A stretch of 38,903 bases of DNA from positions 1 to 38,903 of the forward strand of contig JAURNN010000025.1 of NCBI GenBank assembly GCA_030830185.1, given 5' to 3'. The notes beneath the pieces were generated by a model. It searched no databases. It was not told the origin of the DNA and saw only the letters and a list, made by a program, of their open reading frames with translations. Every line of letters begins with the position of its first letter. Within the stretch, counting starts at the first letter, position 1. Shown in pieces: positions 1 to 18,577 of this stretch. Source of the DNA: Bacillota bacterium (lineage in GTDB: Bacteria > Bacillota_I > Bacilli_A > Acholeplasmatales > Acholeplasmataceae). The position numbers and the translations under genes were made by a program.

Positions 1-550
1 AATCAATAAATTCAACATCAACTCCTGCTTCGATTAATACTCCAGCAAGTGTATGCGTTCTTTTTGAAACGCCACGATAACGAAATCTACCAGTATCTGT
101 AATTAACCCTGTATATAAAGCAATTGCAGATTCTAGTGGAATTTCTAGTTTGTGCTGAAATGCAAAGTCAGTAATCATTTCAGAAACTGCAGGGTAACTC
201 GTATCTACCCAATTCATATCACCATAAGCGTCAACATCAATATGATGGTCAATTTTAATCACTTTTTTCCCTAGTGTATATCTGGTATCGCTAATGCGAT
301 CTTTTGTCGCTGTATCTACAACAACTGATAATGCATCTTTATATACATCATCAGTAATCACATCTGGCGTTCCTACGTACTTGATGTAATCACTTTCTTC
401 TCCTACAACATAAATGTTCTTATGAGGAAAGGCTGCTTTTAAAATGCCTTTGAGTCCGTATTGTCCTCCGTAACAATCCCCATCTGGCCTTTTATGTCCG
501 TGAATAATAATCGTATCAAATTGTTTAATTTCTTGTAGAATGTTTGTCAT
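1..550 (-). CDS. DHH-family phosphoesterase, NrnA-like paralog 2 (C-terminus cut by the window edge)
   Basis: Own minus-strand translation from ATG 550-548 (RBS AAAGGTGA upstream): MTNILQEIKQFDTIIIHGHKRPDGDCYGG...VVVDTAT...KIDHHIDVD...ITDTGRFRY. DHH motifs are in canonical order. The frame is open to position 1. It is absent from the ORF track because it has no stop in the window. It overlaps the upstream paralog by 26 nt. Confidence 0.85.
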   Translation of the reverse strand, partial: MTNILQEIKQFDTIIIHGHKRPDGDCYGGQYGLKGILKAAFPHKNIYVVGEESDYIKYVGTPDVITDDVYKDALSVVVDTATKDRISDTRYTLGKKVIKIDHHIDVDAYGDMNWVDTSYPAVSEMITDFAFQHKLEIPLESAIALYTGLITDTGRFRYRGVSKRTHTLAGVLIEAGVDVEFID

Positions 551-1481
551 GTTGTTTCACCTTTTCATTTAAGTCTTCTATGAGTTGATATACTTTTTCA
601 ATATTTTCTAATGTTGCACCACAAGCATTTAAATGCCCACCGCCACCATATTTTTTAGCAACATCTACAATCGGGATATCTCTTGAACGAAGTTCGGCGA
701 CATATGAACCATTGTGATCTTCAGAGAAGCTTCCCCATATAAGAACTTCTTTAATACCTGACATTTGATTGACCATACCACGACTAATGGATTGAAAGTC
801 TTCGCCAGTTGATTCAATCAAGGCTTTGGAGTTAATTCTATAAGCAACATTTTCTTTAGTAAGTTCAAATGCTGAAAATTGATTTTTCAATATTTTTCTT
901 GAAAGTGTTTCGGTATACAAATAATTATATAAATCTTGGATGCTAGGTTCAAAACGAGATACATAGCTTGCGAGTAAAAAGGTTCTTTCTGGATTTTTTA
1001 AGTATAAAAACCTTCCAGAATCTGTGACCATACCTCCATAAAGATACGTCGCTGCATCTTTTGATAAATAAAAGTCGTGCGTCTTAGCAATGTCTATTAT
1101 CATCTCACATGCTGAGTTAAAGCTCGTATCTTTATAATGGATTGAAACATTTTCTACGTCAGTATCGTTTTCATGGTGGTCGATAACGATGATTTCTTTT
1201 CCTAATTGATAACGATCATCACTAATCATATGTGATACAGCAACATCTGTAATGATAACAAGTGCGTCTTTATAAGTTTCATCTGTTATTTCATCCATCT
1301 TTGCAAGATAACTCATTGTATTTAAATCCCCTACAACACATATCTTTTTTTCTGGATATTGGCTTTCTAAAAGAAATTTCAATCCCATTTGACTCCCAAT
1401 AGCATCTAAGTCGGGTCTTAGGTGTCTATGGATGATAATCGTGTGATATGCTTTGATTTTGCTTAAGATGACATCTTTCAT
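525..1481 (-). CDS. DHH/DHHA1-family phosphoesterase (NrnA-like nanoRNase / pAp phosphatase), paralog 1
   Basis: 318 aa. Motifs IIIHRHLRPDLDAIGS (DxD), VIITDV, VIDHHEND (DHH) and DHHA1 GGGGHLNACGA. RBS AAAGGAG lies before the ATG at 1481. Confidence 0.88.
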   Translation of the reverse strand: MKDVILSKIKAYHTIIIHRHLRPDLDAIGSQMGLKFLLESQYPEKKICVVGDLNTMSYLAKMDEITDETYKDALVIITDVAVSHMISDDRYQLGKEIIVIDHHENDTDVENVSIHYKDTSFNSACEMIIDIAKTHDFYLSKDAATYLYGGMVTDSGRFLYLKNPERTFLLASYVSRFEPSIQDLYNYLYTETLSRKILKNQFSAFELTKENVAYRINSKALIESTGEDFQSISRGMVNQMSGIKEVLIWGSFSEDHNGSYVAELRSRDIPIVDVAKKYGGGGHLNACGATLENIEKVYQLIEDLNEKVKQHDKHSTRN

Positions 1482-1521
1482 GTTTGCTCCTTTTGAAGAT
1501 TATAATAGAATATCATATTTC

Positions 1522-1550
1522 ATAATAAAAAGCGAGTTGCCCCGCTTTTA
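1522..1550 (-). terminator. Putative intrinsic terminator after the LTD-nuclease gene
   Basis: Minus strand reads TAAAAGCGGGGCAACTCGCTTTTTATTAT. The stem is AAAAGCGgG/CtCGCTTTT with one mismatch, followed by a U-tract. It starts at the stop codon. Confidence 0.45.
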
Positions 1551-2756
1551 TTCCCAAGGAAGTTTTAAGTGTGGTGTCCAAACTGGATTTTCAGTTGTAT
1601 TTCTTCTTGTGTCATAGTTCCAGTCAGGAGATTTTTCACCTTCTGGGTCATTTGGAAACCCTTTAGTTGCCCAACTGTTCTCTTCCGCTCTATGTTGAGC
1701 AAATCTTAAAAATGTTAAATACGGAACGTTTTTATAGGTTAACAAATAATCATAGGCTTGGTATTGTGAACCAACATCTTCTGATAATCCTTCCGCGACA
1801 ATCCAAAATTGCGAAAGTGCTCCGTTGATCCAAACAAGTCCAAGATTTCTACCATATCCCTCTTGTAGACTGTTTCCAGGAATTGATTGTATGTGTATGG
1901 TTTTTGAATTAGAATCGCCTAAAAGGTATTCTTTATTATATTTACTAGCCACATATCCCCATGGTTCTGCGGATACATTGCTTCCATTCACTTCAGGTGT
2001 GTTTAAGTAAAAGTATCTTAAAGACCCTCCTGGATATCCATTCATTGAGGTAAAAAATGCGGTATCTCCATCAGCAACACCGTTCAGTTTAACCTCTGCT
2101 GCACCACCATAACCTAATTCATTATTGTTTGGGTCAACATATGGCAAATCTAAATAGCGTTGTTCTAATTGAGGCCCTTGATAAAGTTGTTCGAGTGTTT
2201 TAATGTCGTGATTGTCGTTTTTTAAGTTCTCAAACAAATCAGGAACATACGCAATAAAATTAAATTGATTATATTCAGTTGATGCGATATAGTCTTCTTT
2301 TTCACCAAGTCTTATCATTGTAAGGTCGACTGCAAAATTAATATCAAACCCTAGTAGCCCAAATTGATCTACCTTTTGATCATTATAAAAAAGTTCTATG
2401 ACGTCATTACCGTTATAAGGCAAGTTATTATTATATTGATAATCTGTCTTGTTTTGAATATTTATATTCGTTGGATTGTTCCCCGAAACTACATAATAGG
2501 AATCTGGTTCGAGAATTCCTTCTAGTTGTATGGCGTGATCACCACCTTCTGTTGTCGACCCATTATTATAAATTCTTAGTTCAACTTTATTTAAATCTAC
2601 CGGTTCAATAGTTGGGTTATATACTTCAATAACATTATTAGACATCGATGTGGCATCGAATACTTTAGAAATAACAATGTTTGGTGTTTCTCCTTGACAC
2701 GATTGAAGTAAGAAAACACTTAAAAGTAGCATGATTATCGTGGTGGTTTTTCTCAT
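1548..2756 (-). CDS. Surface lipoprotein nuclease: N-terminal lamin-tail domain (LTD) fused to a C-terminal staphylococcal/thermonuclease (SNase) domain
   Basis: Signal peptide plus lipobox MRKTTTIIMLLLSVFLLQSC. LTD-like segment: VISKVFDATSMSNNVIEVYNPTIEPVDLNKVELRIYNNGST...SYYVVSGN. SNase-like segment: VKLNGVADGDTAFF...LRYFYLNTPE...EPWGYVASKYNKEYLL...GYGRNLGLVWINGALSQFWIVAEGLS. Confidence 0.8.
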   Translation of the reverse strand: MRKTTTIIMLLLSVFLLQSCQGETPNIVISKVFDATSMSNNVIEVYNPTIEPVDLNKVELRIYNNGSTTEGGDHAIQLEGILEPDSYYVVSGNNPTNINIQNKTDYQYNNNLPYNGNDVIELFYNDQKVDQFGLLGFDINFAVDLTMIRLGEKEDYIASTEYNQFNFIAYVPDLFENLKNDNHDIKTLEQLYQGPQLEQRYLDLPYVDPNNNELGYGGAAEVKLNGVADGDTAFFTSMNGYPGGSLRYFYLNTPEVNGSNVSAEPWGYVASKYNKEYLLGDSNSKTIHIQSIPGNSLQEGYGRNLGLVWINGALSQFWIVAEGLSEDVGSQYQAYDYLLTYKNVPYLTFLRFAQHRAEENSWATKGFPNDPEGEKSPDWNYDTRRNTTENPVWTPHLKLPWE

Positions 2757-3610
2757 TTTTTGATCTCCTTGTTTGTTTTCATTCTCTTCATGTTTTTATG
2801 AAAAAACGTAAAGTAGGTGACGGGAATAAATATAAGTATTTCAATTCCTATATATAAGTAACTCAAGTAGTTATATGATTGAAAAAGTGTATTAAGTTCG
2901 GTATTGAGATACCACGTATCTTTATCATTAATGGTTTCAAGTTGAATATTTGATTCTTCTATTATATTTAAATCTGCTTGGTAGAAATCCGGGAAACTTA
3001 AACTCTTATCCTCATAAACTTCAGTATTGATGAGTTTAGATGTTGAAACATCAAATCCTTCTGTTGGATAAAATACTTCAATACGTTCAATACGTGTTGT
3101 TTTGGTGTCATTTATAAAATGTTTTTGGTCAATTGCATACATGTGCATTGAATCATCATATAGTTGGACGAATTGTTCTTGAAAGACGCTTTGATTAAAC
3201 CCTTCTGGATTAGATTCAAACGCAATATCAATTTTTAGTGTAAGTGCATCATCATTAAAAAAAGCAAAAGAATCAGTATTCTCATAATCGCGAATGAGTA
3301 TGATCATTTCATAATGATAATTACTATTGTTTTCGTATAATAGCACGGGAAAAATCATGAGTTGATAAGCATAGTTTGGTTGAGTAATTTCAACATCAAT
3401 GATGGGGTCATTTTTGATATAAATATCAAATTGTCCTTGTGTGTTTGCGATTAAAGTTGCTGTTATCAAATCCTTTGAATCATCATAAATACGTGCTTCT
3501 TGTTCTTCTAAAAATGTTACTGTTTGATTGGCTCTTGCATAACCAGCAACAATAAAGGTGATAAAAGCAATCAATATGATATATGATGTGATTCCAAAGA
3601 TTTTTCCCAT
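2753..3610 (-). CDS. Membrane protein of unknown function with one N-terminal and one C-terminal TM helix and an external domain of about 220 aa
   Basis: 285 aa. TM1 is ITSYIILIAFITFIVAGYA and TM2 is YLYIGIEILIFIPVTYFTFF, followed by a basic tail. Its stop overlaps the nuclease start (ATGA at 2753-2756). I recognise no family motif. Confidence 0.6.
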   Translation of the reverse strand: MGKIFGITSYIILIAFITFIVAGYARANQTVTFLEEQEARIYDDSKDLITATLIANTQGQFDIYIKNDPIIDVEITQPNYAYQLMIFPVLLYENNSNYHYEMIILIRDYENTDSFAFFNDDALTLKIDIAFESNPEGFNQSVFQEQFVQLYDDSMHMYAIDQKHFINDTKTTRIERIEVFYPTEGFDVSTSKLINTEVYEDKSLSFPDFYQADLNIIEESNIQLETINDKDTWYLNTELNTLFQSYNYLSYLYIGIEILIFIPVTYFTFFHKNMKRMKTNKEIKK

Positions 3611-3638
3611 GTATTTTCCTAGGTTTTTGTGTATGTCT

Positions 3639-3667
3639 ATTATACGTTTTTTAATGCTTTTTTACAA
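3639..3667 (-). promoter_or_regulatory. Sigma-70/SigA-type promoter for the 2-TM protein / LTD-nuclease unit
   Basis: Minus strand reads TTGTAA, a 17-nt spacer, then TATAAT. The -35 is the reverse complement of 3662-3667 and the -10 is the reverse complement of 3639-3644. It lies about 29 nt upstream of the ATG at 3610, with AGGAAAA as the RBS. Confidence 0.6.
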
Positions 3668-3700
3668 ATAAAAAAAGGATAGATTGCTCTATCCTTTTTC
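3666..3700 (-). terminator. Strong intrinsic terminator ending the ABC / giant-lipoprotein operon
   Basis: Perfect 8-bp stem AGGATAGA/TCTATCCT (3676-3683 and 3688-3695) with a 4-nt loop. It is flanked by A7 and T5, so on the minus strand the hairpin is followed by TTTTTTTATTT. Confidence 0.8.
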
Positions 3701-3720
3701 TTACAATGTTTAATCAATTA

Positions 3721-6700
3721 TTACGCTGTGTGTGAACCTAAATAGGAGAAATCATTTGCTGGATATACAATCCATTCTTCTGGATTCCATGTTCCTGTCC
3801 CACCAGTTACACCCGGTTTTCTTACAAGAGTTACATTTGCTGTTGTTCCAGTGCCAACAACCCAAGATGATCCTGGATCTTCACCAACAACACCAAACAT
3901 GTCTATAACAACCCATGTTGTACCTCCATCGGTTGTTTTTTCTAATACAAATGCATCATCTCCATTAAAAAATGTGACGTCTCCTGCTAAATCTCCAACT
4001 GAAGTAATTTCAGAAACTGATTGACTGTTATAAATTACAAATACGTCTCCAGCTGCAAGAGAACCAGAAAGTACTGATGTTTGAGAAGCCGTTGTACTTC
4101 CGTTTGAATATAAAGTTACTCTATAATTTGTTAGATCTAAAGCAGCATCTGTTGGATTATATAGTTCAATTGCTTTATTGTTTCCGCCATCACCTTCAAC
4201 ATACTCAGAAATGAATAGGTCAGAAGTTGGGGTTACCACAACAACTTTTTCAACAGCATCAGCGCTTGCAATACGTAATCTTAATTCATTACTCCAATAT
4301 GCACCAGCAACAACATTGATTACATCACCAACAACTAACTCAGTTGGTAACCCAACAGGATCACCTGATCTAGAGTCCCAACGAATAAAGAATGTTGCAG
4401 TTCCATTTGAAACTTCAATATCTAAATTATCATATTGGTCGTATGCTATACTAATCACTTCTAATCCTTTAAATTCTACAAGTTGTGCAGTATAGGCTTC
4501 TAATGCAGTAACATCCATTGCTGTGACATCAACTGCTGTTGGGAAGTCAAATCCTGGTGTTGGAATAACATTTACAAATTGAACACTAGAAACTTGTTCT
4601 AATCCTCTAAATGCGCCGCGAGTTGCTTGAATTTCAATTGCATATCCACCTAAGTAAGCAGCTAGGAATGCATCTTTTTCAGCACTTGAACCGCTTCCTA
4701 AAAACACATCTAGTGCCCCTGTGTTGTCTTGGAATAAGAAGTTATTACCATCGACATTAAGTGTGACATATCCACGAATCGTAACGATTGTATCTACCGC
4801 TTCAGCAAGTGCAGCAGCAATTGTCATTGGAGGTAATGTGAAGTCACCTTCAGCATCAATTCTTAAACGTGCACCATCACTCCAGTAAACACCGACAACA
4901 GCATCAACAACATCACCAGCAACTAGTGTTAGTGGGAATCCTACTGGATCTCCTGTTCTTGAATCCCAACGAATTTCAACTGTTTCACTACCTAGTGTAA
5001 ATGTGAAATCAACATTATCATATTGATCTGTCGCTAGGCTTACAAATACTAAACCTTCTAAACGAACTTGTTGTGCAATGTAGTCTGATAAGTCAGCAAC
5101 GCTTGTGACAACTGTTGGTGTAGGGAATGCAGCACCAATTTTATCAAAAAGCATTAAATCTGTAATTGTTGATACTTGTTCTAATCCTCTAAATGTTCCA
5201 CGTTTTGCAGTAAGTTGAACTGCATAACGTCCGTGATACGCACGTAATAATTCATCTTTAGTAGGACTTGCACCACCACCAGCAAAGATATCAAGTGCAC
5301 CAGTACCATCTTGAATAAAGAAGTTGTTACCCTCAACATTCATGGTGATGTATCCTTCAACGGTTACAATAGTATCCACAGCTTCCAATAATGCTGCTGC
5401 AATTGTCATTGGAGGCAATGAAACATCGTCTGCAGAGTCAATTCTTAATATTGCTGAGTTACTGAAATACACACCTGCAACAATGTTAACAATATCGCCT
5501 GCTTCAAGTTCTGTTGGAAGTCCAGCAGGTGTAGCAGCTCTTGAGTCCCAACGAATCACAACTGTTTCTGTTCCTAAAGTTGCAGTAATATCTAAGTTTC
5601 CATATGAGTCATAAGCAATACTTACTACTTCTAAATTTCTAAATCTAACGAGTTGAGCAACGAGTCCGTCTAATTGTGATAATGCTGTTACATCAACAAC
5701 AATCGGGAATGCTACTTCAGGTTCAGAAACAACAGCGACACTTGTAATGTTAGATAATTGTTCTAACCCTCTAAATGAACCTCGTTCACCAACAACTTCA
5801 ACAAGTTCACCACTTGCTAATGCTGCTAAAATTGCAGTTTTTTGTTCACTATCGCCAGGCATATATAAATCAAGCGCACCTGTTTCGTCTTGTAGTAAGA
5901 AGTTGTTTCCATCAACATTCAATGTAACATAGCCTTGAACAACTGCAAGTTCACCTGCTGCAATTTCTAATGCTTCAGAAATAGAAACAACTGGTGATAC
6001 ACCAACTTTAACTGTAAATTCTTTAACAACTGCAGTTGCGGTTCCAAGTGATACTGTTGCAGTTAATAGAACTGTCGCTTGACCATCTGTTGGTACAGTG
6101 ACTGCACCTGTCGTTGGGTTAATGACAGCTTCATTATCTGATGTCCAAGCAATCGTGGTATCATTTGCACCTGTCGTTGCTAAATCTAGTGTCGTATCTT
6201 CTAAAATGTTAAATGGAATTGATAGTGCGTTGCTATCTACTTCAATTGCTTCAGCATCTGTTAGGTTTGCTGTAATTCCGTCAGCACCACCTACATAGTA
6301 AAATGCAAATGCTTTATTGTTTGATCTGAATGTATAAATTAAAATATCAACAGTAATAACTTTGCCGTCATACGCTTGAATTTCAGCCATATTAAATGTA
6401 TTGTAATATAGCATGAGTCCCACTGTAGGAGCTTCAGTTGTTCCTGGAACCCATGTTTGTGTTGTGTCATAATTGGTTGGCATAATATAGGTATTATAGT
6501 TTCCTGTATCACCAGGAATCACATAAACACGTCCAGTAACTGTTGCATAAACTGTTTCAAATGCACCACTTGATGCATTACCATATGCAATTTCATCTTG
6601 ATCTGTATCAAGTAAGTTATTGACATATGCTGCAATGTCAGTAATGACTTCAGCTGTTGGCATTTGTGGTGTTGCTGTAGCATCTAATTCAGCTGTCCAA

Positions 6701-7350
6701 GCAACAAGTTCCCAAATTCCAAAGTACCATTCAGTAGTACCAGAAACATCATAGACTTTTCCTACTTCAAGTCCACTCATGTCTCCACCGTAAAGTTGAA
6801 TGATTCCTGTTCCGTCATATGCAAACGCAGAATCTGAACCTTTACCTACAATGGTTAATCCGTCTAATGTTACTTGGTATGTACCATCATATGCAACATC
6901 GTCAAGTGCAAGAACGTCTTCTATATTTTCAATTGTGACCTCTTCAACCTCACTTGATTTAACAGTAAGTTCTAAACTCCAGGTAAGTGTAAGCTCTTGA
7001 GTTGCATCTAACTCAGATGGAATTGTTAAAACCGCCGTTAACATGACTTTGGCATCTGGTTCACCAAATGCAGGACGGTTCACAGTTACAACTGCTAAGT
7101 TACTTGCTGGTTGTCCTACTGTGACAACCCCTGGATTATTGGTTGACCATACTGCATCCACACCACCAACAAGTAATGTTGGAACCGTAAAGTTACCGGT
7201 AATATTTGATGGGTCAGATATTAATCCGTTTAATGTATCATATGCATCTTGTAAGGTTTCTTGAGCTGGATCGACCGTTACTGGGTCTTCACATGCTACT
7301 AAACCAAAGACAAGTGCGAATGATGCGAGTAATAAAAATAATTTTTTCAT
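3721..7350 (-). CDS. Giant surface lipoprotein: Ig-like N-terminal segments, OB-like beta-barrel modules (three tandem ~194-aa repeats) and a C-terminal lamin-tail domain. No recognisable catalytic domain.
   Basis: 1209 aa. Lipobox is LASFALVFGLVAC. Ig-like pattern: TTIAWTSDNEAVINPTTGAVTVPTDGQATVLLTATV. Repeats start at SPVVSISEAL / PPMTIAAALLEAVDTIV / PPMTIAAALAEAVDTIV. Each repeat contains GYVT.NV.GNNF..QD.TGALD, RG.FRGLEQ and IRWDSR. LTD segment: LFISEYVEGDGGNNKAIELYNPTDAALDLTNYRVTLYSNGST...GDVFVIYN...FNGDDAFVL. Confidence 0.8.
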   Translation of the reverse strand: MKKLFLLLASFALVFGLVACEDPVTVDPAQETLQDAYDTLNGLISDPSNITGNFTVPTLLVGGVDAVWSTNNPGVVTVGQPASNLAVVTVNRPAFGEPDAKVMLTAVLTIPSELDATQELTLTWSLELTVKSSEVEEVTIENIEDVLALDDVAYDGTYQVTLDGLTIVGKGSDSAFAYDGTGIIQLYGGDMSGLEVGKVYDVSGTTEWYFGIWELVAWTAELDATATPQMPTAEVITDIAAYVNNLLDTDQDEIAYGNASSGAFETVYATVTGRVYVIPGDTGNYNTYIMPTNYDTTQTWVPGTTEAPTVGLMLYYNTFNMAEIQAYDGKVITVDILIYTFRSNNKAFAFYYVGGADGITANLTDAEAIEVDSNALSIPFNILEDTTLDLATTGANDTTIAWTSDNEAVINPTTGAVTVPTDGQATVLLTATVSLGTATAVVKEFTVKVGVSPVVSISEALEIAAGELAVVQGYVTLNVDGNNFLLQDETGALDLYMPGDSEQKTAILAALASGELVEVVGERGSFRGLEQLSNITSVAVVSEPEVAFPIVVDVTALSQLDGLVAQLVRFRNLEVVSIAYDSYGNLDITATLGTETVVIRWDSRAATPAGLPTELEAGDIVNIVAGVYFSNSAILRIDSADDVSLPPMTIAAALLEAVDTIVTVEGYITMNVEGNNFFIQDGTGALDIFAGGGASPTKDELLRAYHGRYAVQLTAKRGTFRGLEQVSTITDLMLFDKIGAAFPTPTVVTSVADLSDYIAQQVRLEGLVFVSLATDQYDNVDFTFTLGSETVEIRWDSRTGDPVGFPLTLVAGDVVDAVVGVYWSDGARLRIDAEGDFTLPPMTIAAALAEAVDTIVTIRGYVTLNVDGNNFLFQDNTGALDVFLGSGSSAEKDAFLAAYLGGYAIEIQATRGAFRGLEQVSSVQFVNVIPTPGFDFPTAVDVTAMDVTALEAYTAQLVEFKGLEVISIAYDQYDNLDIEVSNGTATFFIRWDSRSGDPVGLPTELVVGDVINVVAGAYWSNELRLRIASADAVEKVVVVTPTSDLFISEYVEGDGGNNKAIELYNPTDAALDLTNYRVTLYSNGSTTASQTSVLSGSLAAGDVFVIYNSQSVSEITSVGDLAGDVTFFNGDDAFVLEKTTDGGTTWVVIDMFGVVGEDPGSSWVVGTGTTANVTLVRKPGVTGGTGTWNPEEWIVYPANDFSYLGSHTA
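4246..5997 (-). repeat. Three in-frame tandem coding repeats (about 579-582 nt, 193-194 aa each) inside the giant lipoprotein gene
   Basis: Repeat starts on the minus strand are near 5997, 5418 and 4836. The identical 17-mer gcaattgtcattggagg occurs at 5400-5416 and 4818-4834. Protein copies are clearly homologous along their whole length, but the DNA has diverged. Confidence 0.8.
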
Positions 7351-7376
7351 TCACTTCTCCCTTTTTCTTTTTTTTA

Positions 7377-8816
7377 TTAATTCGTTATAAAATCAAATGA
7401 TTCTTGGTATTGCTCATCAATATACGCATCTAAATCGGCGTCGCTTGCTGCTTCATAAGCAAGTATTTTTACAAGTAGTGCACCAACTTCAGATCGTGTT
7501 TTTGAACTTTGATTAAACACTGCTGATGTGAAGAAAATATCTTCATTTTCTAAGAAAATTTCAATCGCTTCTTTAACAAGTTTTGCAATCGCTTCATCCA
7601 TCGTTGTTGGGTTTTCTTTGATACCTGCAACATAGTTCGTCCAACGCGTTGTTTCGTAAGCTGAATAACGAATTGGTGCATATCCTGAAGGAATACTAAA
7701 TTCAGCAGTTCTTTCTGGTTCTAGCATAAACTTCGCAAATAACCACGCAGCAATCATGCGTTGTTCATCATTAGATTTGAATAAGTTAATGTTTGGTCCT
7801 TGTTGAATTTGGAAACGAGATTCTGCAGTAAATCCTGGAAGTGGTGCAACACCAACACGGTAACCAGCGTCAAAAACCGCTTGAGGCATACCAACATAAG
7901 CATAGCGTGTTCCACCTGTAGATCCAACATACATATATGTTTTAGGGTTTGCAACTTTCATTGAGTCAGAGTTATATGCATCCCCATTGAGTGCACGTGT
8001 AATCATTAATCCCTTATCTACTTTATCTTTAAAGTAACGTACCATGTCTTTAGATAAGTCGTTGTTGAATTGAACTTCACCGCGTCCAGTTTCAGCGTTG
8101 TATCCTGTATAAGGTGCATTAAATTGTTTAGACCCTGTAATGAATAAGTTATCTTCTGAGTCATATCCAAAAGGAAATGAATCTGGTTCTCTATCTTTGA
8201 TATCTTGGGCGATTGCGAATACTCCATCCCAAGTTGTTGGAACGTCATATCCGTGTTCCTTAAAATATGATTCGTTATAGAAAAACGCTTCTGAGGATTT
8301 AGTAAATGGTAATGAAAGAATTGTTCCTTCATCATCATAACTTTGACCTTCTGCCCATAATCCTGGTAAAAAGTCTGCAATTTCTTCATCTGTTAAACCA
8401 ATGTTTGGATTATTAATAAAGTTATTCAGAGCAAGTGGTGCTTTTGCAGCAGCATATCTTGCAATATGGTCTGGATAACTTTCGGCAATATCTGGTTGAT
8501 TTCCTGCAGGAATTGCAAGCGCAATCTTATCAGATAAAGCAGTATAATCTCCAGCTGCTTTTTCTTCAATCACTGTAATGTTTGGATAAACAACATTAAA
8601 CTCTTCGATCCATTTTTGTACAAGTGCTTGAGATTGTGCACCCATGCGATGCCAAAACGTGATCGTGATTTCTTTTGAAGTATCAAGATCAGCATCTGCA
8701 GATAATTCATACCACTCAACAAGACGAGCAGCTTCATTACCTGTACGTTCACCACCACATGCAGCAAGTGAAACTGCAGCAGTAAGTGCTAAAAATAATA
8801 AAAATACTTTTTTCAT
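7377..8816 (-). CDS. ABC transporter substrate-binding lipoprotein (family-1 / CUT1-type extracellular solute-binding protein)
   Basis: 479 aa. Lipobox is ALTAAVSLAAC. General SBP-family-1 look (ITFWHRMG..., LPFTKSSEAFFYN). It sits directly downstream of the permeases with an RBS (AAGGAGAAAAGGG) and no terminator. Confidence 0.8.
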   Translation of the reverse strand: MKKVFLLFLALTAAVSLAACGGERTGNEAARLVEWYELSADADLDTSKEITITFWHRMGAQSQALVQKWIEEFNVVYPNITVIEEKAAGDYTALSDKIALAIPAGNQPDIAESYPDHIARYAAAKAPLALNNFINNPNIGLTDEEIADFLPGLWAEGQSYDDEGTILSLPFTKSSEAFFYNESYFKEHGYDVPTTWDGVFAIAQDIKDREPDSFPFGYDSEDNLFITGSKQFNAPYTGYNAETGRGEVQFNNDLSKDMVRYFKDKVDKGLMITRALNGDAYNSDSMKVANPKTYMYVGSTGGTRYAYVGMPQAVFDAGYRVGVAPLPGFTAESRFQIQQGPNINLFKSNDEQRMIAAWLFAKFMLEPERTAEFSIPSGYAPIRYSAYETTRWTNYVAGIKENPTTMDEAIAKLVKEAIEIFLENEDIFFTSAVFNQSSKTRSEVGALLVKILAYEAASDADLDAYIDEQYQESFDFITN

Positions 8817-8844
8817 ACCCTTTTCTCCTTTTTTGTTTTATTTA

Positions 8845-9783
8845 TTACCCTTTAACACCACTTCTAGAAATTCCAGACATGATGTATTTTCTAAAAAAGA
8901 TAAACATAAGTAGTAATGGCACTGTTACAATTACAGTCGCTGCCATTTGATAGTTGATTAAGACTCTACCAACACCTGTTGCGTCTTGATCAGTAAATGA
9001 AGATCTAAGCCAGGTTGTGACGAGTTTGTATTTCTCGTTTGCAACAATATCTGGCCAGATATAGGCATTCCATGCACCCATTAATTTTAAGATGACGATG
9101 GTAATGATTGAACTTTTTGCCATAGGAACCATCACAGTTCTTAAGTATTTAAAGTCTTTGCATCCATCGACTTTGGCTGCATAATACAATTCATTAGGAA
9201 TTTGTTTAAACGTTTGTCTAAGTAAATAAATATGGAAAATTGAAATAAAGAATGGAATAATCATCGCCAAAAACGATCCGATACCATCATCATTGACCCA
9301 TCCTAATCTTGAAACTGTAATATAGTTTGAGATAATAAGCATTTCACCTGGAATCATCATGGTTGCAAGCAAGATTGTAAAAATAAGTTCTTTTCCTTTG
9401 AAGTTCAGTCTTGCAAGTGCGAATGCCACAAGTATTGAAAAGAAGGTTCCACCTACAGTTGAAAATATCGCAACAATTAGTGTATTACTTAAATATCTCG
9501 TAAAGGTAATTCCACCTTGTTGTGCTGATGAATATAAAAATGTTGAAACGTAGTTCTGTGGGCTAAACTCTTTAGGAAATAAACTTGTGTTAAGGGAGTT
9601 AAGTACTTCGTTACTAGATTGAAAGGACACATTAAGCATCCAGTAAAATGGCACAATCACAATAAACGCCATGACAAATAAGAAGAAATATGTCATTGAT
9701 TTATTTGCAACAAAAAGTGCACGTTGTTCTTTTAATTTTCGGTTAACGCGGTAATGACCGCTTGGATTCATGTATTGTATCAT
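8845..9783 (-). CDS. ABC transporter permease (MalG/UgpE-like, CUT1 family)
   Basis: 312 aa and multi-TM. EAA-loop-like segment: YYAAKVDGCKDFKYLRTVMVPMAKSS. RBS AAGGAGAG lies before the ATG at 9783. Confidence 0.85.
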   Translation of the reverse strand: MIQYMNPSGHYRVNRKLKEQRALFVANKSMTYFFLFVMAFIVIVPFYWMLNVSFQSSNEVLNSLNTSLFPKEFSPQNYVSTFLYSSAQQGGITFTRYLSNTLIVAIFSTVGGTFFSILVAFALARLNFKGKELIFTILLATMMIPGEMLIISNYITVSRLGWVNDDGIGSFLAMIIPFFISIFHIYLLRQTFKQIPNELYYAAKVDGCKDFKYLRTVMVPMAKSSIITIVILKLMGAWNAYIWPDIVANEKYKLVTTWLRSSFTDQDATGVGRVLINYQMAATVIVTVPLLLMFIFFRKYIMSGISRSGVKG

Positions 9784-9793
9784 ATTGCTCTCC

Positions 9794-10720
9794 TTAGTAA
9801 TGAACCCGTTTTTTAGAGATGTTCAAGTTAATAAAGGTGAATATCAAAATAATGATAAATAAAATAACCGCAGAAGCTGCGCCTCTAGAATAATAAGAAA
9901 CAAAATTACTATCTAGCCCAACGTTACCAATCTTGTCGTAGACATAAGCAACAGCTGTCCATCGATTTCTATCAAGAAGCCTTCCTGTTGAACCTGCAAC
10001 AGCAAGCACACTTTCATAAGATTTAAATGCACCAATGAAAGAGGTAATCAAGATATAGCTAATAAGTGGTGATAGTAGTGGAATGGTGATGTGTCTTAAA
10101 ATTCTTCTTTTTGGAGTTGCATCAATTTTTGCTGCATCATAATATTGTTTTGAAATGTTTTGGAGCCCGCCAATGAAAACTAAAATTTTAAATGGTAGTC
10201 CGTCCCAAATAGAGTACACCAGAACAACAAACATCCAATCTGAACGGTCTGCAGTCACACCAACCCAGTCTCTAGAAAGTCCAAACAAAGTATTAATAAG
10301 ACCTTCAGCCATTAAACCGTCTGTTAGTGGGTGTGAAAACATGACGCTAAAAACCATCCCAATTGCTAACCCGTTTGTTACATAAGGTAGGAAGAACACC
10401 GTTTGGAATATTTTTTGAAGCGGTTTAATCGAATTTAAAGCAACTGCAATTAATAAAGCTAGCCCTGTTGAAACTGGCACGGATACAAAAACTAAAATCA
10501 TTGTGTTTCCAATGGCTCTAATAAAATAAGGATCATTAAAAATTGCGCCATATGCAGCGATATCTAAATACGATCCAAATGTATCTGTCATAGGATTATA
10601 TTGAGAAAAAACAGAGATTAAAATTGTTTTTACTAAGGGATAGAACGTAAATACTGTTAGTAAAAGTAGTGGAAAAGCAAGATAAAACCATGCTTTTCGA
10701 TCAATTTTATTTTCTAACAT
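9794..10720 (-). CDS. ABC transporter permease (MalF/UgpA-like, CUT1 family)
   Basis: 308 aa with 6 predicted TM helices. EAA-loop-like segment: YYDAAKIDATPKRRILRHITIPLLSP. The start overlaps the ATPase stop (TAATG at 10718-10722). Confidence 0.85.
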   Translation of the reverse strand: MLENKIDRKAWFYLAFPLLLLTVFTFYPLVKTILISVFSQYNPMTDTFGSYLDIAAYGAIFNDPYFIRAIGNTMILVFVSVPVSTGLALLIAVALNSIKPLQKIFQTVFFLPYVTNGLAIGMVFSVMFSHPLTDGLMAEGLINTLFGLSRDWVGVTADRSDWMFVVLVYSIWDGLPFKILVFIGGLQNISKQYYDAAKIDATPKRRILRHITIPLLSPLISYILITSFIGAFKSYESVLAVAGSTGRLLDRNRWTAVAYVYDKIGNVGLDSNFVSYYSRGAASAVILFIIILIFTFINLNISKKRVHY

Positions 10721-12267
10721 TACGCAAGTCTCCTACCGTTAGATTCGTCAAAAATATAGGTTTTATTTTCTTTTAATTTAAATGATACATTTCCTTTTAG
10801 TTCTTTTAGATTAACCTCGTCATTTAAAATAATTCTAAATGATGGTGCGGTAGATGCTGAATGACTTGACACCAGGGCAAAATCGCGTCCAATCGTTTCA
10901 ACAAACTGAGCTTCAATTGTTAGCGGTCCTTCTTTATCAAGAGTATATCCTTCAGGACGAACACCAACAACAACGTTTCTGTCTTTTTCTTTAGAGAGTT
11001 TCTCTGATTCAAACACGGGTTTTTGGTTAATAAAAACTTGTCCTTTTTTAAGTTCTGCACGGTATAACCCAATTGGTGGTGTTCCTAAAAATTGTGCCGA
11101 AAACAAGTTGGCTGGTTGGTCATAAACTTCTTGAGGTTGGCCTTTTTGTTGTTCTTCACCAAAATTCATTAAGACAATTTCATCAGAAATAGACATTGCT
11201 TCTTCTTGATCGTGAGTAACAAAAATGGTTGTAATGCCCGTTTCTCTTTGAATACGTTTAATTTCTTCTCTTGTTTGAAGTCTAAGTCTTGCATCTAAGT
11301 TTGATAGTGGTTCGTCTAATAACAACACTTGTGGTTTTTTAACAAGTGCGCGTGCAATCGCTACACGTTGTTGTTGTCCACCCGAGAGTTGAGCCGGCTT
11401 TTTGTCTAATTGATCTTCTATACCAACGAGTTTTGCCATTTCTATCATGCTGTTTTCCATTAGTGCTTTATAATTTGTTCTTTTTGCTTCTAAAACGAGC
11501 GAAACACTCTCTGGTGCAACGGCATCAGAATTATTTTTCAAAGTTTCTTTATAGGTCATTTCTTTTGCTTGATACGTTTGTTTCATTGTTGAAAATAACG
11601 CCTTAAAATCCTCAATAACGAGTTCGCTTAATTCTTTTTCGTATTGCTTAGATAACGCGTCACGCTTGTTTTTGAGTTCAAACTTAAGTGTTTTTATTTT
11701 TTCTTTATTTGCTTGTTTCAATTCTTTGTTTTGTTTGCTTTCAACTTTTAAACTTTGAACGGCATTATTCACTTCATTTGCCTCATCATTGTCTAATCTC
11801 TTAAATTTGTTTTGTAGGCTTTCAAAAGCATCTACATAATCAAAATATCTCTTTGCTTCTGATGGTGTTTCGATAAAAAACGCTTTTCTATAAGCTTTTT
11901 CTATAGACACTTTTTTTAAATTCATATTTTCTAAAGGAAATAAAATATTTTTTCTAACTGTCATGTGTGGGTAAAGTGCATAGTTTTGAAAAACTAAACC
12001 AATCCCTCTCTTTTCGGCGTCCAATTCGGTGACTTCTGTTTCACCAAAGAAAATTTTACCTTTTGTTGGTGCCAAAAGTCCCGCAATCATGTAAAGTGTT
12101 GTTGATTTTCCGCACCCTGAAGGTCCTAATAATCCTACAAGTTTTCCTGACGGAATTTCGACATCGAAATCATACACGGCACGCGTGATTTTTCCTGTTT
12201 TTTTATCGACAAAATCCTTGTGTAGATTTTCTAATTTGATGGATAAACTCTTGTGTGAATTTTGCAT
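10720..12267 (-). CDS. ABC transporter ATP-binding protein (MalK/UgpC-like) with a Lys/Glu-rich insertion of about 145 aa in the helical subdomain
   Basis: 515 aa. Walker [10 protein letters not shown] (aa 48-56), Q-loop [13 protein letters not shown], signature LSGGQQQRV (aa about 293), Walker [13 protein letters not shown]-loop FVTHDQ, and a C-terminal MalK-type regulatory/OB domain. About 175 aa separate the Q-loop region from LSGGQ, versus about 35-40 aa in E. coli MalK. Confidence 0.9.
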
Positions 12268-12285
12268 TGCTTTTCTCCGTTTTTC

Positions 12286-12324
12286 TTAAAATAAAAAGCA
12301 CTTAATCAGAATATTAAGCGCTTT
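12286..12324 (-). terminator. Intrinsic terminator inside the 5' leader of the ABC operon (candidate attenuator)
   Basis: Minus strand reads AAAGCGCTTAAT-ATTCTG-ATTAAGTGCTTT followed by TTATTTT. The stem is 12 bp including one G.U pair. On the plus strand the same position is an A/C mismatch, so the hairpin is better on the minus strand. It ends about 8 nt before the RBS GGAG (12275-12278). Confidence 0.6.
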
Positions 12325-12373
12325 AAAAATTTAGTTTTTTGTGTTATTGTTAAAAAAACCCAAGGTAATTGTT

Positions 12374-12391
12374 ATATTCAAATTTTTGAAT
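12374..12391 (-). promoter_or_regulatory. Perfect 8-2-8 inverted repeat in the ABC-operon leader (operator or RNA hairpin)
   Basis: TATTCAAA-tt-TTTGAATA, located about 35-50 nt downstream of the predicted transcription start. Its 3' half (GAATAT) can also pair with AUAUUC in the terminator 5' arm and loop. Confidence 0.4.
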
Positions 12392-12432
12392 AAATAGTAG
12401 TCTGTTTTCAATCTTAATTCCCTCGCATAACT

Positions 12433-12460
12433 ATTATATATCAAAACGTGGTTTTTTCAA
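12433..12460 (-). promoter_or_regulatory. Sigma-70/SigA-type promoter of the ABC / giant-lipoprotein operon
   Basis: Minus strand reads TTGAAA (reverse complement of 12455-12460), a 16-nt spacer, then TATAAT (reverse complement of 12433-12438). Confidence 0.65.
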
Positions 12461-12491: not shown

Positions 12492-13874
12492 TCAAAATTC
12501 GCAATTGTTTGGTGTTCTTGGAAATGGAATCACATCTCTAATATTTTCTACACCTGTTTAATACATAATGAGTCTTTCAAAACCCATCCCAAATCCGCTA
12601 TGAACAGTACCGCCATAACGTCTTAAATCAAGATACCAATTAAATTCTTCTATAGGAACATGCATTTCTTTCATTCTTTTTATAAGGAGGTCTAATCGTT
12701 CTTCTCTTTGAGATCCACCGATAAGTTCTCCACTTCCCGGAACGAGCAAGTCCATTGCTGCAACTGTCTTTTGATCATCATTGATTCTCATATAAAACGC
12801 TTTAATATCTTTAGGCCAATGTGTAATAAATACAGGCGTTTTATATAGAACATCTGTTAAATATTTTTCGTGTTCTGTGTTTAAATCTTGTCCGTGTGTT
12901 GGTTTGTTTTCAAAAGGGTGATTAGAGGCTAGTAGTTGATTGATCGCTTCTTTGTGAGTAATTTTTTCAAAACTACTATTTAATACTAGTGTTAGTCTCT
13001 CTTTAAGGTTTTTATCAACAAACTCATTAAAAAAATCAATTTCGAAGTGACAGGTTTTTAGAATGTATTCAATGACGTATTTAACCATGTCTTCAGCGAC
13101 ATTCATATTTCCTTCAAGATCACAAAAAGCCATTTCTGGTTCAATCATCCAAAACTCAGATGCGTGTCTTTGAGTGTTTGATTTTTCAGCTCGAAAAGTA
13201 GGTCCGAATGTATACACGTTTTTAAACGCCATCGCGTATGCTTCGGCTTCTAATTGGCCAGTTACAGCAAGATAGGTTGGTTTTCCAAAAAAATCTTTGG
13301 AATAATCAATGTCTTTTTCTTTTCCCGTTTGTTTCAAGTCTAGCGTAGTCACTTGAAACATCGATCCAGCACCTTCACCATCATTTCCTGTAATGAGTGG
13401 TGTGTGCGTATAAACAAATCCTCGTTTATTAAAAAATTGATGAATGGCCATTGCAGCTTCACTTCTCACTCGAAAGACCGCTTGAAAAAGATTGGTTCGC
13501 ATGCGAAGATGAGCAACTTCTCTTAAAAACTCTCTTGTATGTCTTTTGGGTTGAATTGGATAATCTTCCGGAGAATCCCCAAGAAGAGTGATTTGTGTTG
13601 CTTTAATTTCAAAAGGCTGTTTCATATTAGGGGTTAAAACAAGCTTCCCATGAATTTCAACAGAACTACCTACACGCATTTTTTGAGTTTCTTTGAAATT
13701 GTGTAGCGTTTCTTCGTAAACAACCTGTAGTGTTGGGAATGTCGTTCCGTCATGAAAATTGATAAATCCGAAGTTTTTTTGGCTTCGGTTGTTTCTTATC
13801 CATCCATACAAGACAACTCTTTGTTGGTCTAATTGTTGGTGATTTTCAAATAAATACTTAACTGTCGTCTCCAT
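12492..13874 (-). CDS. asnS: Asparagine--tRNA ligase interrupted by an in-frame TAA at 12558-12560 (possible pseudogene, sequencing error or readthrough)
   Basis: Class-II aaRS with an N-terminal OB domain (VVLYGWIRNNRSQKNFGFINFHDGT), motif 2 (FRAEKSNTQRHASEFWMIEPE) and motif 3 (GFGMGFERLIMY). After the TAA the same frame continues as [21 protein letters not shown], then TGA at 12492-12494. The likely start is ATG 13874 (RBS GAGGA 5 nt upstream); the ORF-track start at 13886 is an alternative. Confidence 0.85.
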
Positions 13875-14997
13875 CGTTATCCTCATCTTTAGTCATGTTA
13901 TCTATGAATCGTGCTTCTTCGAATTTAGCATCTTTAATATAATCAAATTTCTTTTTAATTTTTTCAGTGGTGGTTGACATTTTTTCAGCATCTTTTTTAA
14001 TCGTGTCAATCGATCGATTCAATTTTTCCCAACGTTCACTATATCTCATAAACTCGATATTAAGTTTATTAAGTTCATCAATAATGACTTTTGTTTGTTC
14101 ATCTCTTTTTAAGTTTTGAACAAAGACTTGTATCATTGTTAGGGTTGAAAATAGTGTTGTTGGGGAGGTTAACCAAACACGCCTATTGTTGCTGTACTCT
14201 ACTAAGGTTTCATGATGTGCGGTGATTTCGGCGAAGATGGCTTCTGCAGGTAAGAACAGTATTGCTTGGTGTGACGTTTCACCTTCAATAATGTATTTGT
14301 TTGCAATATCATCGATATGTTTTTTAACGTCAGATTGAAATAATTTTTTTGCAGCATCTCTTTCTGTTTGATGGTATTCACTATTGGTCATTCTTTTATA
14401 GTTATCTAGTGGAAACTTCGAATCTATAACAACCATACCAAGTGGTTCTGGTGCATATAAAACCGCGTCTGCAATGGTTTGGTTAGATAGTTTCACCTGC
14501 GTTTTATAAAGATTTTCATCTTGGCCAAAAACAGCTGATAAAAGTTGATAAAGTTGAACTTCTCCATAAATCCCTCTTGTTTTTTTATCAGCTAAAACGC
14601 TATTTAAGCTCACAACTTCTTTTGATAATTGCTCAATGTTTTTTTGAGCCTCGTCTATTTTTGATAACCTTTCAACAACATTAACAAACGTTTCATTGGT
14701 TCTTTCAAATCCACCTTGAAGTCTTTTTTCAACAAGCGTGTTCATTTCCTTTAATTTGTTTTCGATATGTACTGTAATTAAATCTTTAAAATTATATAAA
14801 TCTTTTGTGTTTTTTTCGTTTGATTCATAAATCAACTCTCTTAGTTGGGTTTTTAATCCTTCATACTCTTTTTGCATATAGACTTTTAAATCGCTTTGAT
14901 CTTGAGGAATCGCTTTTTTTTGGCTTTGTATTACTAAAAATACAACCAAAATGATCATGAGACTCGCAAGTAAAATAAGTGTTACAATTTCAATCAT
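13858..14997 (-). CDS. rmuC: DNA recombination protein RmuC
   Basis: 379 aa. N-terminal TM helix, long coiled coil, and a C-terminal RmuC-type segment (VVIDSKFPLDNY...AILFLPAEAIFAEI...VWLTSPTTLFSTL). Confidence 0.8.
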   Translation of the reverse strand: MIEIVTLILLASLMIILVVFLVIQSQKKAIPQDQSDLKVYMQKEYEGLKTQLRELIYESNEKNTKDLYNFKDLITVHIENKLKEMNTLVEKRLQGGFERTNETFVNVVERLSKIDEAQKNIEQLSKEVVSLNSVLADKKTRGIYGEVQLYQLLSAVFGQDENLYKTQVKLSNQTIADAVLYAPEPLGMVVIDSKFPLDNYKRMTNSEYHQTERDAAKKLFQSDVKKHIDDIANKYIIEGETSHQAILFLPAEAIFAEITAHHETLVEYSNNRRVWLTSPTTLFSTLTMIQVFVQNLKRDEQTKVIIDELNKLNIEFMRYSERWEKLNRSIDTIKKDAEKMSTTTEKIKKKFDYIKDAKFEEARFIDNMTKDEDNDGDDS

Positions 14998-15917: not shown

Positions 15918-15948
15918 TGCGGGTTTTTTCCTTTTTTTACTCGATTTG

Positions 15949-15957
15949 ATTATAACA
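15949..15957 (-). promoter_or_regulatory. Extended -10 promoter element for the YiiX-like / rmuC / asnS unit
   Basis: Minus strand reads TGTTATAAT (TGnTATAAT), about 32 nt upstream of ATG 15917. No clear -35. Confidence 0.35.
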
Positions 15958-15967
15958 TATTGGGTAT

Positions 15968-15995
15968 AAAAAAAAGTAGCTGGGCTACTTTTTTG
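15968..15995 (-). terminator. Intrinsic terminator after jag
   Basis: Minus strand reads AAAAAAGTAGC-CCA-GCTACTTTTTTTT. The stem includes the jag stop codon and is followed by a U-tract. Confidence 0.6.
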
Positions 15996-18336: not shown

Positions 18337-18405
18337 ATTTTTTTATAAAAAAAGGACGTCTCTTTGAAATTTATTCGAGTAGTCCTAGTTATTTATAAAT
18401 TACAA

Positions 18406-18540
18406 TTAAACGGTGAGCTGCGCTCTACCTTTTGCGCGACGTCTTGCAAGTACGCGGCGTCCACCAACAGTTGCCATTCTTGCTCTAAAGCCGTGTGTCT
18501 TTTGACGTTTACGTTTATTTGGTTGATATGTTCTTTTCAT
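18406..18540 (-). CDS. rpmH: 50S ribosomal protein L34
   Basis: Own translation; this gene is not in the ORF track. [44 protein letters not shown] plus TAA. RBS GAAAGGTGG. Confidence 0.95.
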
Positions 18541-18577
18541 GTATCTTACCACCTTTCATAGGAAACCATGCTTTGTT

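Follow-up and report, generated by a model that had tools for sequence, protein, structure and literature searches.

The subject of this study is a block of genes at positions 1 to 12460 of a 38,903-nucleotide stretch of Acholeplasmataceae DNA (Bacillota bacterium, GenBank assembly GCA_030830185.1, contig JAURNN010000025.1; the whole stretch is referred to below as ‘the window’), which we think probably encodes a system for scavenging extracellular nucleic acid. Reading along the minus strand, from 12267 down to position 1, we see nine protein genes in the layout of open reading frames (ORFs): an ATP-binding cassette (ABC) ATPase, two permeases, a substrate-binding protein (SBP), a 1209-aa lipoprotein, a protein with two transmembrane helices (2-TM), a lipoprotein with LTD and SNase domains, and two DHH phosphoesterases (Table 1). 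Successive genes are separated by a 1-nt overlap, 10, 28, 26 and 110 nt, a 4-nt overlap, 66 nt and a 26-nt overlap, and fall into three units with promoters and terminators. The first-pass annotation of this DNA had counted ten genes; the minus-strand orientation and the three units stand, the count does not, ten being reached only when the 26-codon leader ORF is included. Its domain assignments agree with the Pfam and NCBIfam matches, and promoters and terminators are recovered as sites matching at 11/12 and 10/12 positions and as three hairpins with z-scores of -5.4, -5.9 and -4.3; a further TATAAT (1504-1499) lies past the terminator of the SNase gene and ahead of the DHH unit. Lipoboxes read from the translations (LAAC, LVAC and LQSC) mark the SBP, the 1209-aa protein and the LTD-SNase protein, respectively, as lipoproteins.

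Table 1. Genes and expression signals of the block (window coordinates; units run from high to low positions)
Feature	Position	Strand	Evidence
Sigma-70-type promoter, ABC/scaffold operon	12433..12460	-	TTGAAA-16-TATAAT; 11/12 positions; best site in 13 kb
Leader ORF, 26 codons, TTG start	12331..12411	-	MKTDYYLFKNLNITITLGFFNNNTKN followed by stop; Shine-Dalgarno GAGGG 12424-12420; T7 run 12358-12352
Leader terminator/attenuator, hairpin and T-run	12285..12324 (hairpin 12324-12295)	-	-12.6 kcal/mol; z -5.4 vs shuffles
ABC ATPase, UgpC/MalK-like, 515 aa	10720..12267	-	Pfam ABC_tran 2e-36; NCBIfam UgpC 9e-98
CUT1 permease, UgpA/MalF-like, 308 aa	9794..10720	-	BPD_transp_1 5e-14; UgpA 9e-20
CUT1 permease, UgpE/MalG-like, 312 aa	8845..9783	-	BPD_transp_1 9e-18; UgpE 6.5e-26
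Substrate-binding lipoprotein, 479 aa	7377..8816	-	Pfam SBP_bac_8 8e-37
Surface lipoprotein, 1209 aa	3721..7350	-	aBig_2 x2, BOF-type OB x3, C-terminal LTD (Pfam/NCBIfam)
Intrinsic terminator closing unit 1	3666..3700	-	-16.3 kcal/mol; z -5.9 vs shuffles
Promoter of 2-TM/SNase unit	3639..3667	-	TTGTAA-17-TATAAT; 10/12 positions
2-TM membrane protein, 285 aa	2753..3610	-	ORF; no Pfam or NCBIfam match
LTD-SNase lipoprotein, 402 aa	1548..2756	-	LTD 1.4e-10; SNase 1.2e-3; NucI 3e-7; PDB SNase 3e-5
Terminator 3' of SNase gene	1527..1549	-	Hairpin and T-run; -11.1 kcal/mol; z -4.3 vs shuffles
DHH/DHHA1 phosphoesterase class ‘a’, NrnA-like, 318 aa	525..1481	-	DHH 9e-16; DHHA1 1.5e-12
DHH phosphoesterase class ‘b’, partial (window edge)	1..550	-	DHH 2.5e-15; 26-nt overlap with class-a gene

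An alignment of SBP relatives was scanned against one genome per species, giving at least 592 matching stretches, of which the best 79 were retained as loci: 17 of an Acholeplasma type and 62 at 33–39% SBP identity, the latter mostly from metagenome-assembled genomes (MAGs) of gut Oscillospiraceae, Eubacteriales and Lachnospiraceae, with a few Spirochaetes. Six-frame ORFs were searched with the window proteins and the predicted genes clustered, counts being taken over loci with adequate flank; antisense artefacts of greedy ORF picking in the GC-rich Clostridial loci were ignored, and the counts rest also on phmmer matches. The order ATPase–permease–permease–SBP is universal in the 79 loci. Beside it we find an SNase gene in 64 of 72 loci (Acholeplasma-type 11/14, Clostridia-type 53/58), a large OB/aBig lipoprotein in 49 of 63 (10/10 and 39/53) and a tandem DHH pair in 28 of 46 (4/7 and 24/39); by rough estimate rather than computation, chance would place a DHH pair within 10 kb of any given gene in only a few per cent of genomes. 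The co-conservation on which the first-pass annotation had made its reading depend is thus upheld and, on these comparisons, the linkage outlasts rearrangement across three phylum-level groups.

The arrangement differs between the two types. In the Acholeplasma type the SBP gene is followed by the large lipoprotein, the 2-TM gene and the LTD-SNase gene, with variants such as L016, where the nuclease lies immediately upstream of the ATPase in the order known from Mycoplasma. In the Clostridia type the SBP is followed by a lipoprotein of ~458 aa that combines an SNase domain (Pfam 1e-9 to 1e-10) with OB folds, and then by a 550–1100-aa lipoprotein with aBig_2 and OB folds; an RDD-family membrane protein lies directly upstream of the ATPase in 42 of 51 such loci (e.g. 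L018:2880-3701). Recurrent neighbours include SurE (20 loci), a barnase-type RNase, an NT5C–guanylate kinase fusion, and PHP and HD/HD_assoc proteins, and eight Clostridial loci encode a large Metallophos/5'-nucleotidase protein. Transporter, nuclease, scaffold, DHH and accessory genes are all co-directional in the Spirochaete locus L070 and in L056.

Two of the surveyed contigs call for separate comment. Locus L010 (CAMBSI010000002.1), from a MAG titled Staphylococcus epidermidis, is of the Acholeplasma type with an SBP 67% identical to that of the window, and its flanks match ‘Bacilli bacterium’ MAGs (L006, L009); the probable cause is mis-binning of the contig or a wrong label on the genome. 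In L011 (Mycoplasmatota strain zrk7) a gene for an insertion sequence-type integrase (rve; 5198-6100) sits between asnS and the transporter operon, and a permease ORF is split in two (9011-9229 and 9233-9952).

With an SBP_bac_8 protein, two BPD_transp_1 permeases and a MalK/UgpC-type ATPase, the CUT1 architecture of the UgpBAEC type is complete in the window, and an ATPase orthologue is found in every surveyed locus with sufficient upstream flank. The ATPase carries an insertion of ~137 aa, rich in Lys and Glu (residues ~126–262; window 11482-11892), that separates the Q-loop region from the signature motif; we recognise it because the UgpC model matches the protein in two separate stretches. 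Acholeplasma-type ATPases run to ~515–600 codons; their Clostridial and Izemoplasma orthologues, of 350–390 aa, are without the insertion.

It is the substrate-binding lipoprotein that speaks most directly to cargo. The protein is 64–66% identical to those of Acholeplasma laidlawii and A. hippikon, and its best solved relatives are the UgpB-type SBPs: E. coli UgpB (4AQ4), M. tuberculosis UgpB (6R1B) and 7C0F, a Thermus thermophilus protein listed as binding the dinucleotide UpG in Table S5 of PMC12718374, which refers there to Chandravanshi et al. 2021. The same paper describes two Tyr and two Ser that hold the phosphate as kept in binders of glycerol-3-phosphate (G3P), glycerophosphocholine and UpG and absent from sugar binders (PMC12718374). 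We aligned 72 family members using E. coli UgpB as reference, checked against 4AQ4 and the W169S/W172S mutant 6X84, and see that Y91, S174, S299, Y379 and R441 of the window protein align with UgpB Y42, S121, S247, Y323 and R374; conservation at these sites is 63/72, 72/72, 72/72, 71/72 and 72/72, respectively, so that the Tyr/Ser/Ser/Tyr contacts are shared along with the C-terminal Arg. The two tryptophans that clamp glycerol in UgpB (W169/W172) are replaced by D222/F225 in the window, and by D/A/S/G plus F across the family. Since the phosphate contacts are intact and the Trp clamp is lost, the pocket is predicted to grip phosphate and not glycerol. The protein also departs from the solved relatives in being a lipoprotein with an N-terminal extension of ~45 aa.

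As a single sequence the SBP finds 7C0F first in the PDB (1e-18), with UgpB behind at 1e-15 to 1e-13; in a search with the family profile UgpB and 7C0F tie, and because of that tie we claim for the protein only membership, by sequence, of a CUT1 subclade that binds phosphate or phosphodiesters (UgpB/dinucleotide-binding protein). A narrower placement, closest to the dinucleotide binder, was dropped for the same reason. Against the NCBIfam UgpB model the window protein scores 59 bits, where the equivalog cutoff is 411. A plain sugar binder, which would have told against the one-pathway reading of the first-pass annotation, is not what these residues predict.

The nuclease is a lipoprotein that combines an LTD with an SNase domain, the Pfam SNase score of the window protein (19.8 bits) falling just under the cutoff of 21 and those of its Clostridial partners reaching 36–41 bits. 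When 61 orthologues (11 Acholeplasma-type and 50 Clostridia-type) are aligned to staphylococcal nuclease A, D21, R35, E43 and R87 are invariant, the corresponding window residues being D231, R247, E255 and R303; four of the five catalytic and metal-binding residues are thus intact. At the fifth position, the Ca2+-ligating D40, 54 of the 61 sequences have Asn (N252 in the window), by the alignment a trait of the family and not a sign of decay. We believe the LTD-SNase protein is best regarded as a predicted active surface nuclease.

Its gene is entered through an ATGA overlap from that of the 2-TM protein. In an AlphaFold2 (AF2) model of the latter (pLDDT 82), N- and C-terminal helices flank a beta-sandwich ectodomain for which a fold search found no PDB structural match (E ≤ 1e-3). 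Relatives form only 59 representative clusters among 1.84 billion proteins, indicating a narrow family. The 2-TM gene adjoins that of the LTD-SNase protein in eight loci, and the two relocate together, lying upstream and divergent in L007; so constant a pairing suggests that the 2-TM protein serves the nuclease as anchor, chaperone or regulator. Two possible kinships were considered and rejected: with a 258-aa protein of Izemoplasma (hhalign probability 4.6%), and with the RDD family, the 2-TM protein having no Pfam match whereas the Clostridial membrane protein has one. We note that the Clostridial RDD-family protein is unrelated to the Acholeplasma 2-TM protein.

The 1209-aa lipoprotein is built, in order, from an aBig_2 domain, two OB domains, a second aBig_2, three OB-containing modules of ~192 aa and the LTD, and Pfam and NCBIfam scans of it return no nuclease or other catalytic domain. 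Each module of the tandem (window 4246-5988; residues 455–1035) combines an OB fold with a further beta domain that bears a ‘WDSR’ motif; most proteins of the family, that of A. laidlawii included, have one copy, and three are seen only in relatives at least 51% identical. The family is typically ~920 aa long in Acholeplasmataceae, again including A. laidlawii. An AF2 model of residues 21–460 (pLDDT 93.5) resolves an aBig_2 domain, two five-stranded OB-type barrels and the second aBig_2. For function, the family profile matches the OB domain with which RPA2 binds single-stranded DNA (ssDNA; 5e-4); a fold search with the N-terminal part returns generic Ig-like strings, a weak match to the ssDNA-binding protein LEF-3 being the sole functional hint, and a PDB sequence search with the full protein finds the aBig domain of AbnA alone. 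Comparison by hhalign with the large OB lipoprotein of the Clostridial loci gives 99.7% probability (E 3e-25, 338 columns); the two are homologous, which makes the scaffold a partner conserved alongside the transporter.

OB and LTD modules also occur in known extracellular nucleases, those of the Shewanella ExeM/NucH family and B. subtilis YhcR. Of the ExeM model only an N-terminal stretch, its LTD/OB part, matches the large lipoprotein (4.8e-26) and the SNase protein (1.7e-12), the match covering model positions 17–174 and scoring 91 bits against a cutoff of 1300. Unlike ExeM/NucH, the 1209-aa protein has no EEP catalytic domain; binding and cutting would here be split over two lipoproteins.

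The two DHH genes that close the block encode proteins without signal peptides, of a cytoplasmic type that shares its fold and all its motifs with the NrnA nanoRNase/pAp phosphatase; the complete gene scores 226 bits against the NrnA model (equivalog cutoff 350), and a full-length orthologue of the truncated class-b gene is present in L015, where MgtC and MnmE follow the pair. In all 30 two-gene loci class a precedes class b, the paired ORFs mostly overlapping or abutting, and both retain the DXD, D, DHH and GGGH motifs. Sequences average 54% and 53% identity to others of their own class and 34% to those of the other class, and in 60 of 60 cases the closest protein outside a gene's own locus is of its own class. 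By these sequence criteria the pair is an ancient, ordered duplication; two paralogue classes in fixed tandem are, to our knowledge, not a described property of NrnA, and we might speculate on a heteromer or a division of labour. In three Acholeplasmataceae loci unrelated galactose genes (LacI-type regulator, galT, galK, galE-like; L004:16687-21239, L005:16728-18862, L011:16635-21198) separate the nuclease gene from the DHH pair, or occupy that position on a contig that ends there; not every member of the family therefore shows the DHH adjacency of the window.

Upstream of the ATPase, the leader hairpin and its T-run sit 28 nt ahead of the start codon, and a comparison of leaders from diverged Acholeplasmataceae loci (the window, L002, L003, L004, L005, L011, L015 and L017; L013 fits by eye) reveals a common design: a -10 box, 8–15 nt, a strong Shine-Dalgarno sequence, 8–11 nt, then a start codon opening an ORF of 25–29 codons. 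A run of five to seven T occupies codons 18–22, ending 13–18 nt ahead of the stop, and the terminator hairpin starts between -8 and +9 nt relative to that stop. The chance of any one leader ORF being open is ~0.1, and the T-run is more conserved than the residues it encodes (FF, FL, FS or FY). No Rfam family was found in the leader at a permissive threshold or in the whole window at the gathering threshold; a known riboswitch is rejected, a PyrG-leader match of 19.7 bits against a cutoff of 65 being at chance level.

The E. coli pyrBI and pyrE operons are controlled by UTP-sensitive, translation-coupled attenuators. The leader described here resembles pyrBI in its short ORF with an internal U-tract and in an intrinsic terminator open to masking by a ribosome that has reached the end of that ORF; it differs in having no sequence relation and in that the genes it would control serve uptake, those of pyrBI biosynthesis. 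By analogy, then, this may be a translation-coupled and possibly UTP-sensing attenuator, the UTP sensing itself being purely inferred: a ribosome reaching the end of the leader ORF would cover the terminator's 5' arm, and the operon would be on when UTP is low, as in pyrBI. Attenuation of the UTP type would make sense as the regulatory logic of a nucleotide-scavenging operon.

How the block relates to published systems is clearest for the Izemoplasmatales. ‘DNA-degradation loci’ of Candidatus Izemoplasmatales have been described with extracellular and 3'-5' nucleases, phosphohydrolases, and ABC and phosphate transporters (PMC8289736, Wasmund et al. 2021), and include a large lamin-tail, nucleic-acid-binding protein of 1,049 aa reported with a nuclease domain (PMC8289736, PMC8397711); Wasmund et al. 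guessed the ABC cargo to be nucleosides or nucleobases (PMC8289736). In the cultured X. coldseepsis zrk13, DNA induces a locus of the same described gene classes and promotes growth (PMC8397711, Zheng et al. 2021). In Candidatus Izemoplasma sp. B36 (L081) we read, in order, an LTD-SNase gene, a 258-aa protein, the ATPase, two permeases, a 179-aa protein, the SBP, an aBig_2/LTD protein (P0237, homologous to our large lipoprotein), an oppositely oriented Endonuclease_1, DHHa, DHHb and a Na/Pi-PhoU transporter. Every component of the window bar the 2-TM protein has a counterpart there, with an identical ligand-site pattern in the SBP, and the block therefore belongs to a described kind of locus, alike in its nuclease and ABC importer, its LTD surface protein, its ordered DHHa–DHHb pair and its proposed role in DNA digestion and import.

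The differences lie in the 2-TM partner, upstream of the nuclease in the window where Izemoplasma has the unrelated 258-aa protein downstream, and in the triplicated OB module, the ~137-aa ATPase insertion and a large lipoprotein without a nuclease domain. No Endonuclease_1 gene lies beside the block, nor is there a Pst or Na/Pi gene among the scanned genes of the 38.9-kb window. The first-pass annotation had placed the large LTD/OB lipoprotein, the 2-TM protein and the DHH genes outside any described system; the Izemoplasmatales loci and L081 overturn this for the LTD/OB protein and the DHH pair, and it survives for the 2-TM protein, which has no L081 counterpart. A full-text literature search of incomplete coverage, and thus weak as evidence, found no paper taking such loci to Acholeplasmataceae or Clostridia. 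What appears to be new is the likely cargo of phosphorylated fragments in place of nucleosides, the occurrence in gut Clostridia, the 2-TM family with its narrow distribution and the conserved, proposed leader-peptide attenuator with its U-tract.

The Mycoplasma background invoked by the first-pass annotation is likewise in the literature: genes for SNase lipoproteins (mhp379, MAG_5040, MPN133, MG_186) have as neighbours UgpC/A/E-like ABC genes and one for a P80-type lipoprotein (PMC3585158, PMC9740415), and in M. agalactiae all of these are co-transcribed, with a proposed role in supplying nucleotide precursors (PMC3585158). The published description shares with the window a surface SNase lipoprotein, UgpC/A/E-like ABC genes and a proposed SBP lipoprotein, and at its N-terminus our SBP gives a weak NCBIfam match to the P68 lipoprotein family of Mycoplasma. 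The Mycoplasma nuclease, in contrast, lies upstream in the same operon, that of the window being a separate downstream unit ~4.6 kb past the SBP gene; the Mycoplasma nucleases lack an LTD, and a large OB scaffold and 2-TM partner are undescribed there.

Taking these strands together, we regard it as likely that the block is an Acholeplasmataceae system for nucleic-acid scavenging, in which a scaffold captures nucleic acid, SNase cuts it, phosphorylated fragments are imported, DHH enzymes finish them and an attenuator exerts control. That its genes form one pathway had been proposed in the first-pass annotation, and the computational tests—synteny, SNase residues and SBP ligand site, all comparative—bear the proposal out. 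The OB/LTD lipoprotein, itself without a catalytic domain, would retain nucleic acid on the membrane surface; the LTD-SNase protein, made together with its 2-TM partner, would cut it to 3'-phosphorylated mononucleotides, dinucleotides and short oligonucleotides, as expected of SNase chemistry; the UgpB-like SBP would take up a phosphate-containing fragment and pass it to the CUT1-type permease and ATPase; and in the cytoplasm the NrnA-like DHH/DHHA1 paralogues, possibly as a heteromer, would reduce the fragments to mononucleotides and strip terminal phosphates.

Several observations weigh against this account. Asp40 of SNase, a Ca2+ ligand, is replaced by Asn in most members; by the family profile the SBP is equally near to UgpB, a G3P binder, and to the binder of dinucleotides; CUT1 transporters classically import sugars or glycerophosphodiesters; and the OB domains of the scaffold match models of the BOF/YgiW type, a family not known to bind nucleic acid. 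Many of the Clostridial loci come from related families, so their counts are not independent events. The DHH pair is the most loosely attached component: the unit is preceded by a terminator and has its own promoter, and is therefore not co-transcribed with the rest; in L004, L005 and L011 the galactose genes intervene between it and the nuclease; housekeeping genes follow it; and its pairing with the block in Acholeplasmataceae may in part be inherited backbone synteny. The attenuator model, for its part, presupposes coupling of transcription and translation.

The strongest competitor, which we nonetheless hold to be improbable, accepts the same locus and supposes that digestion is completed outside the cell, nucleosides or nucleobases being imported and the DHH enzymes serving general RNA turnover. 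CUT1 binders mostly recognise sugars and nucleosides contain ribose; the Metallophos/5'-nucleotidase protein of the eight Clostridial loci would suit such a scheme; and nucleoside or nucleobase transport is what PMC8289736 proposed. Set against this is the Tyr/Ser/Ser/Tyr/Arg phosphate set, present in essentially all of the SBPs and absent from sugar binders (PMC12718374), together with the frequent co-localisation of cytoplasmic DHH pairs and SurE (a 5'/3'-nucleotidase), which is best fitted by phosphorylated fragments entering the cell.

An ordinary importer of glycerophosphodiesters, G3P or sugar, to which the nuclease is adjacent by accident, would explain why UgpB, UgpA, UgpE and UgpC are the top NCBIfam matches and why source annotations read ‘multiple sugar transport system’; yet the NCBIfam scores all lie far under their equivalog cutoffs (as with UgpB, above), the G3P Trp clamp is absent, no GlpQ-type glycerophosphodiesterase occurs among the annotated neighbour genes of any locus, and the nuclease and OB partners are kept over three phylum-level groups despite rearrangements, and we give this explanation very little credence. 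That nuclease and scaffold are mainly non-nutritional (escape from DNA traps, biofilm remodelling or restriction of incoming DNA), with the transporter and DHH genes a separate matter, draws on Mycoplasma SNase lipoproteins that degrade neutrophil extracellular traps and are cytotoxic (PMC9740415), but is highly improbable given the same gene set in free-living marine Izemoplasma, environmental Acholeplasmataceae and gut commensals, a nuclease gene that directly abuts that of the SBP or ATPase in most loci, and the response of the X. coldseepsis locus, of the same described gene classes, to nutrient DNA (PMC8397711).

Beyond the block the window is given over to housekeeping genes. A metagenomic contig (L001), 99.87% identical to the window, carries the same genes. 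Upstream of the block, asnS and rmuC are followed by a conserved unknown gene, by khpB and yidC, and beyond a gap by dnaA-dnaN-recF-gyrB-gyrA. The gap of ~800 nt between yidC and the TTG-start dnaA (18060-18857 and flanks) is a probable replication origin and coincides with a change of sign in AT skew, placing the scavenging block 6–18 kb from oriC and co-oriented with replication. The asnS gene (12492-13886, minus strand) is interrupted by an in-frame TAA at 12558-12560, beyond which the conserved C-terminus resumes in frame; L001 has TTA (Leu) at this position and an intact gene of 460 aa, indicating either a nonsense mutation in the window strain or an assembly error. An ORF of 343 aa (14997-16028, minus strand) has no Pfam match; several Acholeplasmataceae loci likewise have a gene at this place, flanked by khpB and rmuC (cluster c19).

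Mollicutes and many gut anaerobes rely on nucleotide salvage, yet it is unsettled in what form the products of nucleic-acid breakdown enter the cell, and both the textbook view and the Izemoplasma papers presume that they are first dephosphorylated to nucleosides. The phosphate contacts of the SBP and the cytoplasmic nanoRNase and nucleotidase partners make import in phosphorylated form a testable alternative, in a system that both Acholeplasma laidlawii and gut Oscillospiraceae carry. A bolder version, which we offer only tentatively, is that the SBP/permease family is the first dedicated bacterial importer of phosphorylated fragments, coupled to a heteromeric DHHa–DHHb nanoRNase/3'-phosphatase specialised for what is imported and, in Acholeplasmataceae, to a pyrBI-like low-UTP switch; the cargo of such an importer would be 3'-nucleotides and di- or trinucleotides released by a partner SNase on an OB-fold surface scaffold, and its hosts wall-less Bacilli, many gut Clostridia and some Spirochaetes. 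Should import in phosphorylated form prove correct, a large group of genes now annotated as ‘multiple sugar transport system’, to which at least 592 stretches in the species-level scan belong, would be renamed, and extracellular DNA and RNA would be a nutrient for common gut Clostridia.

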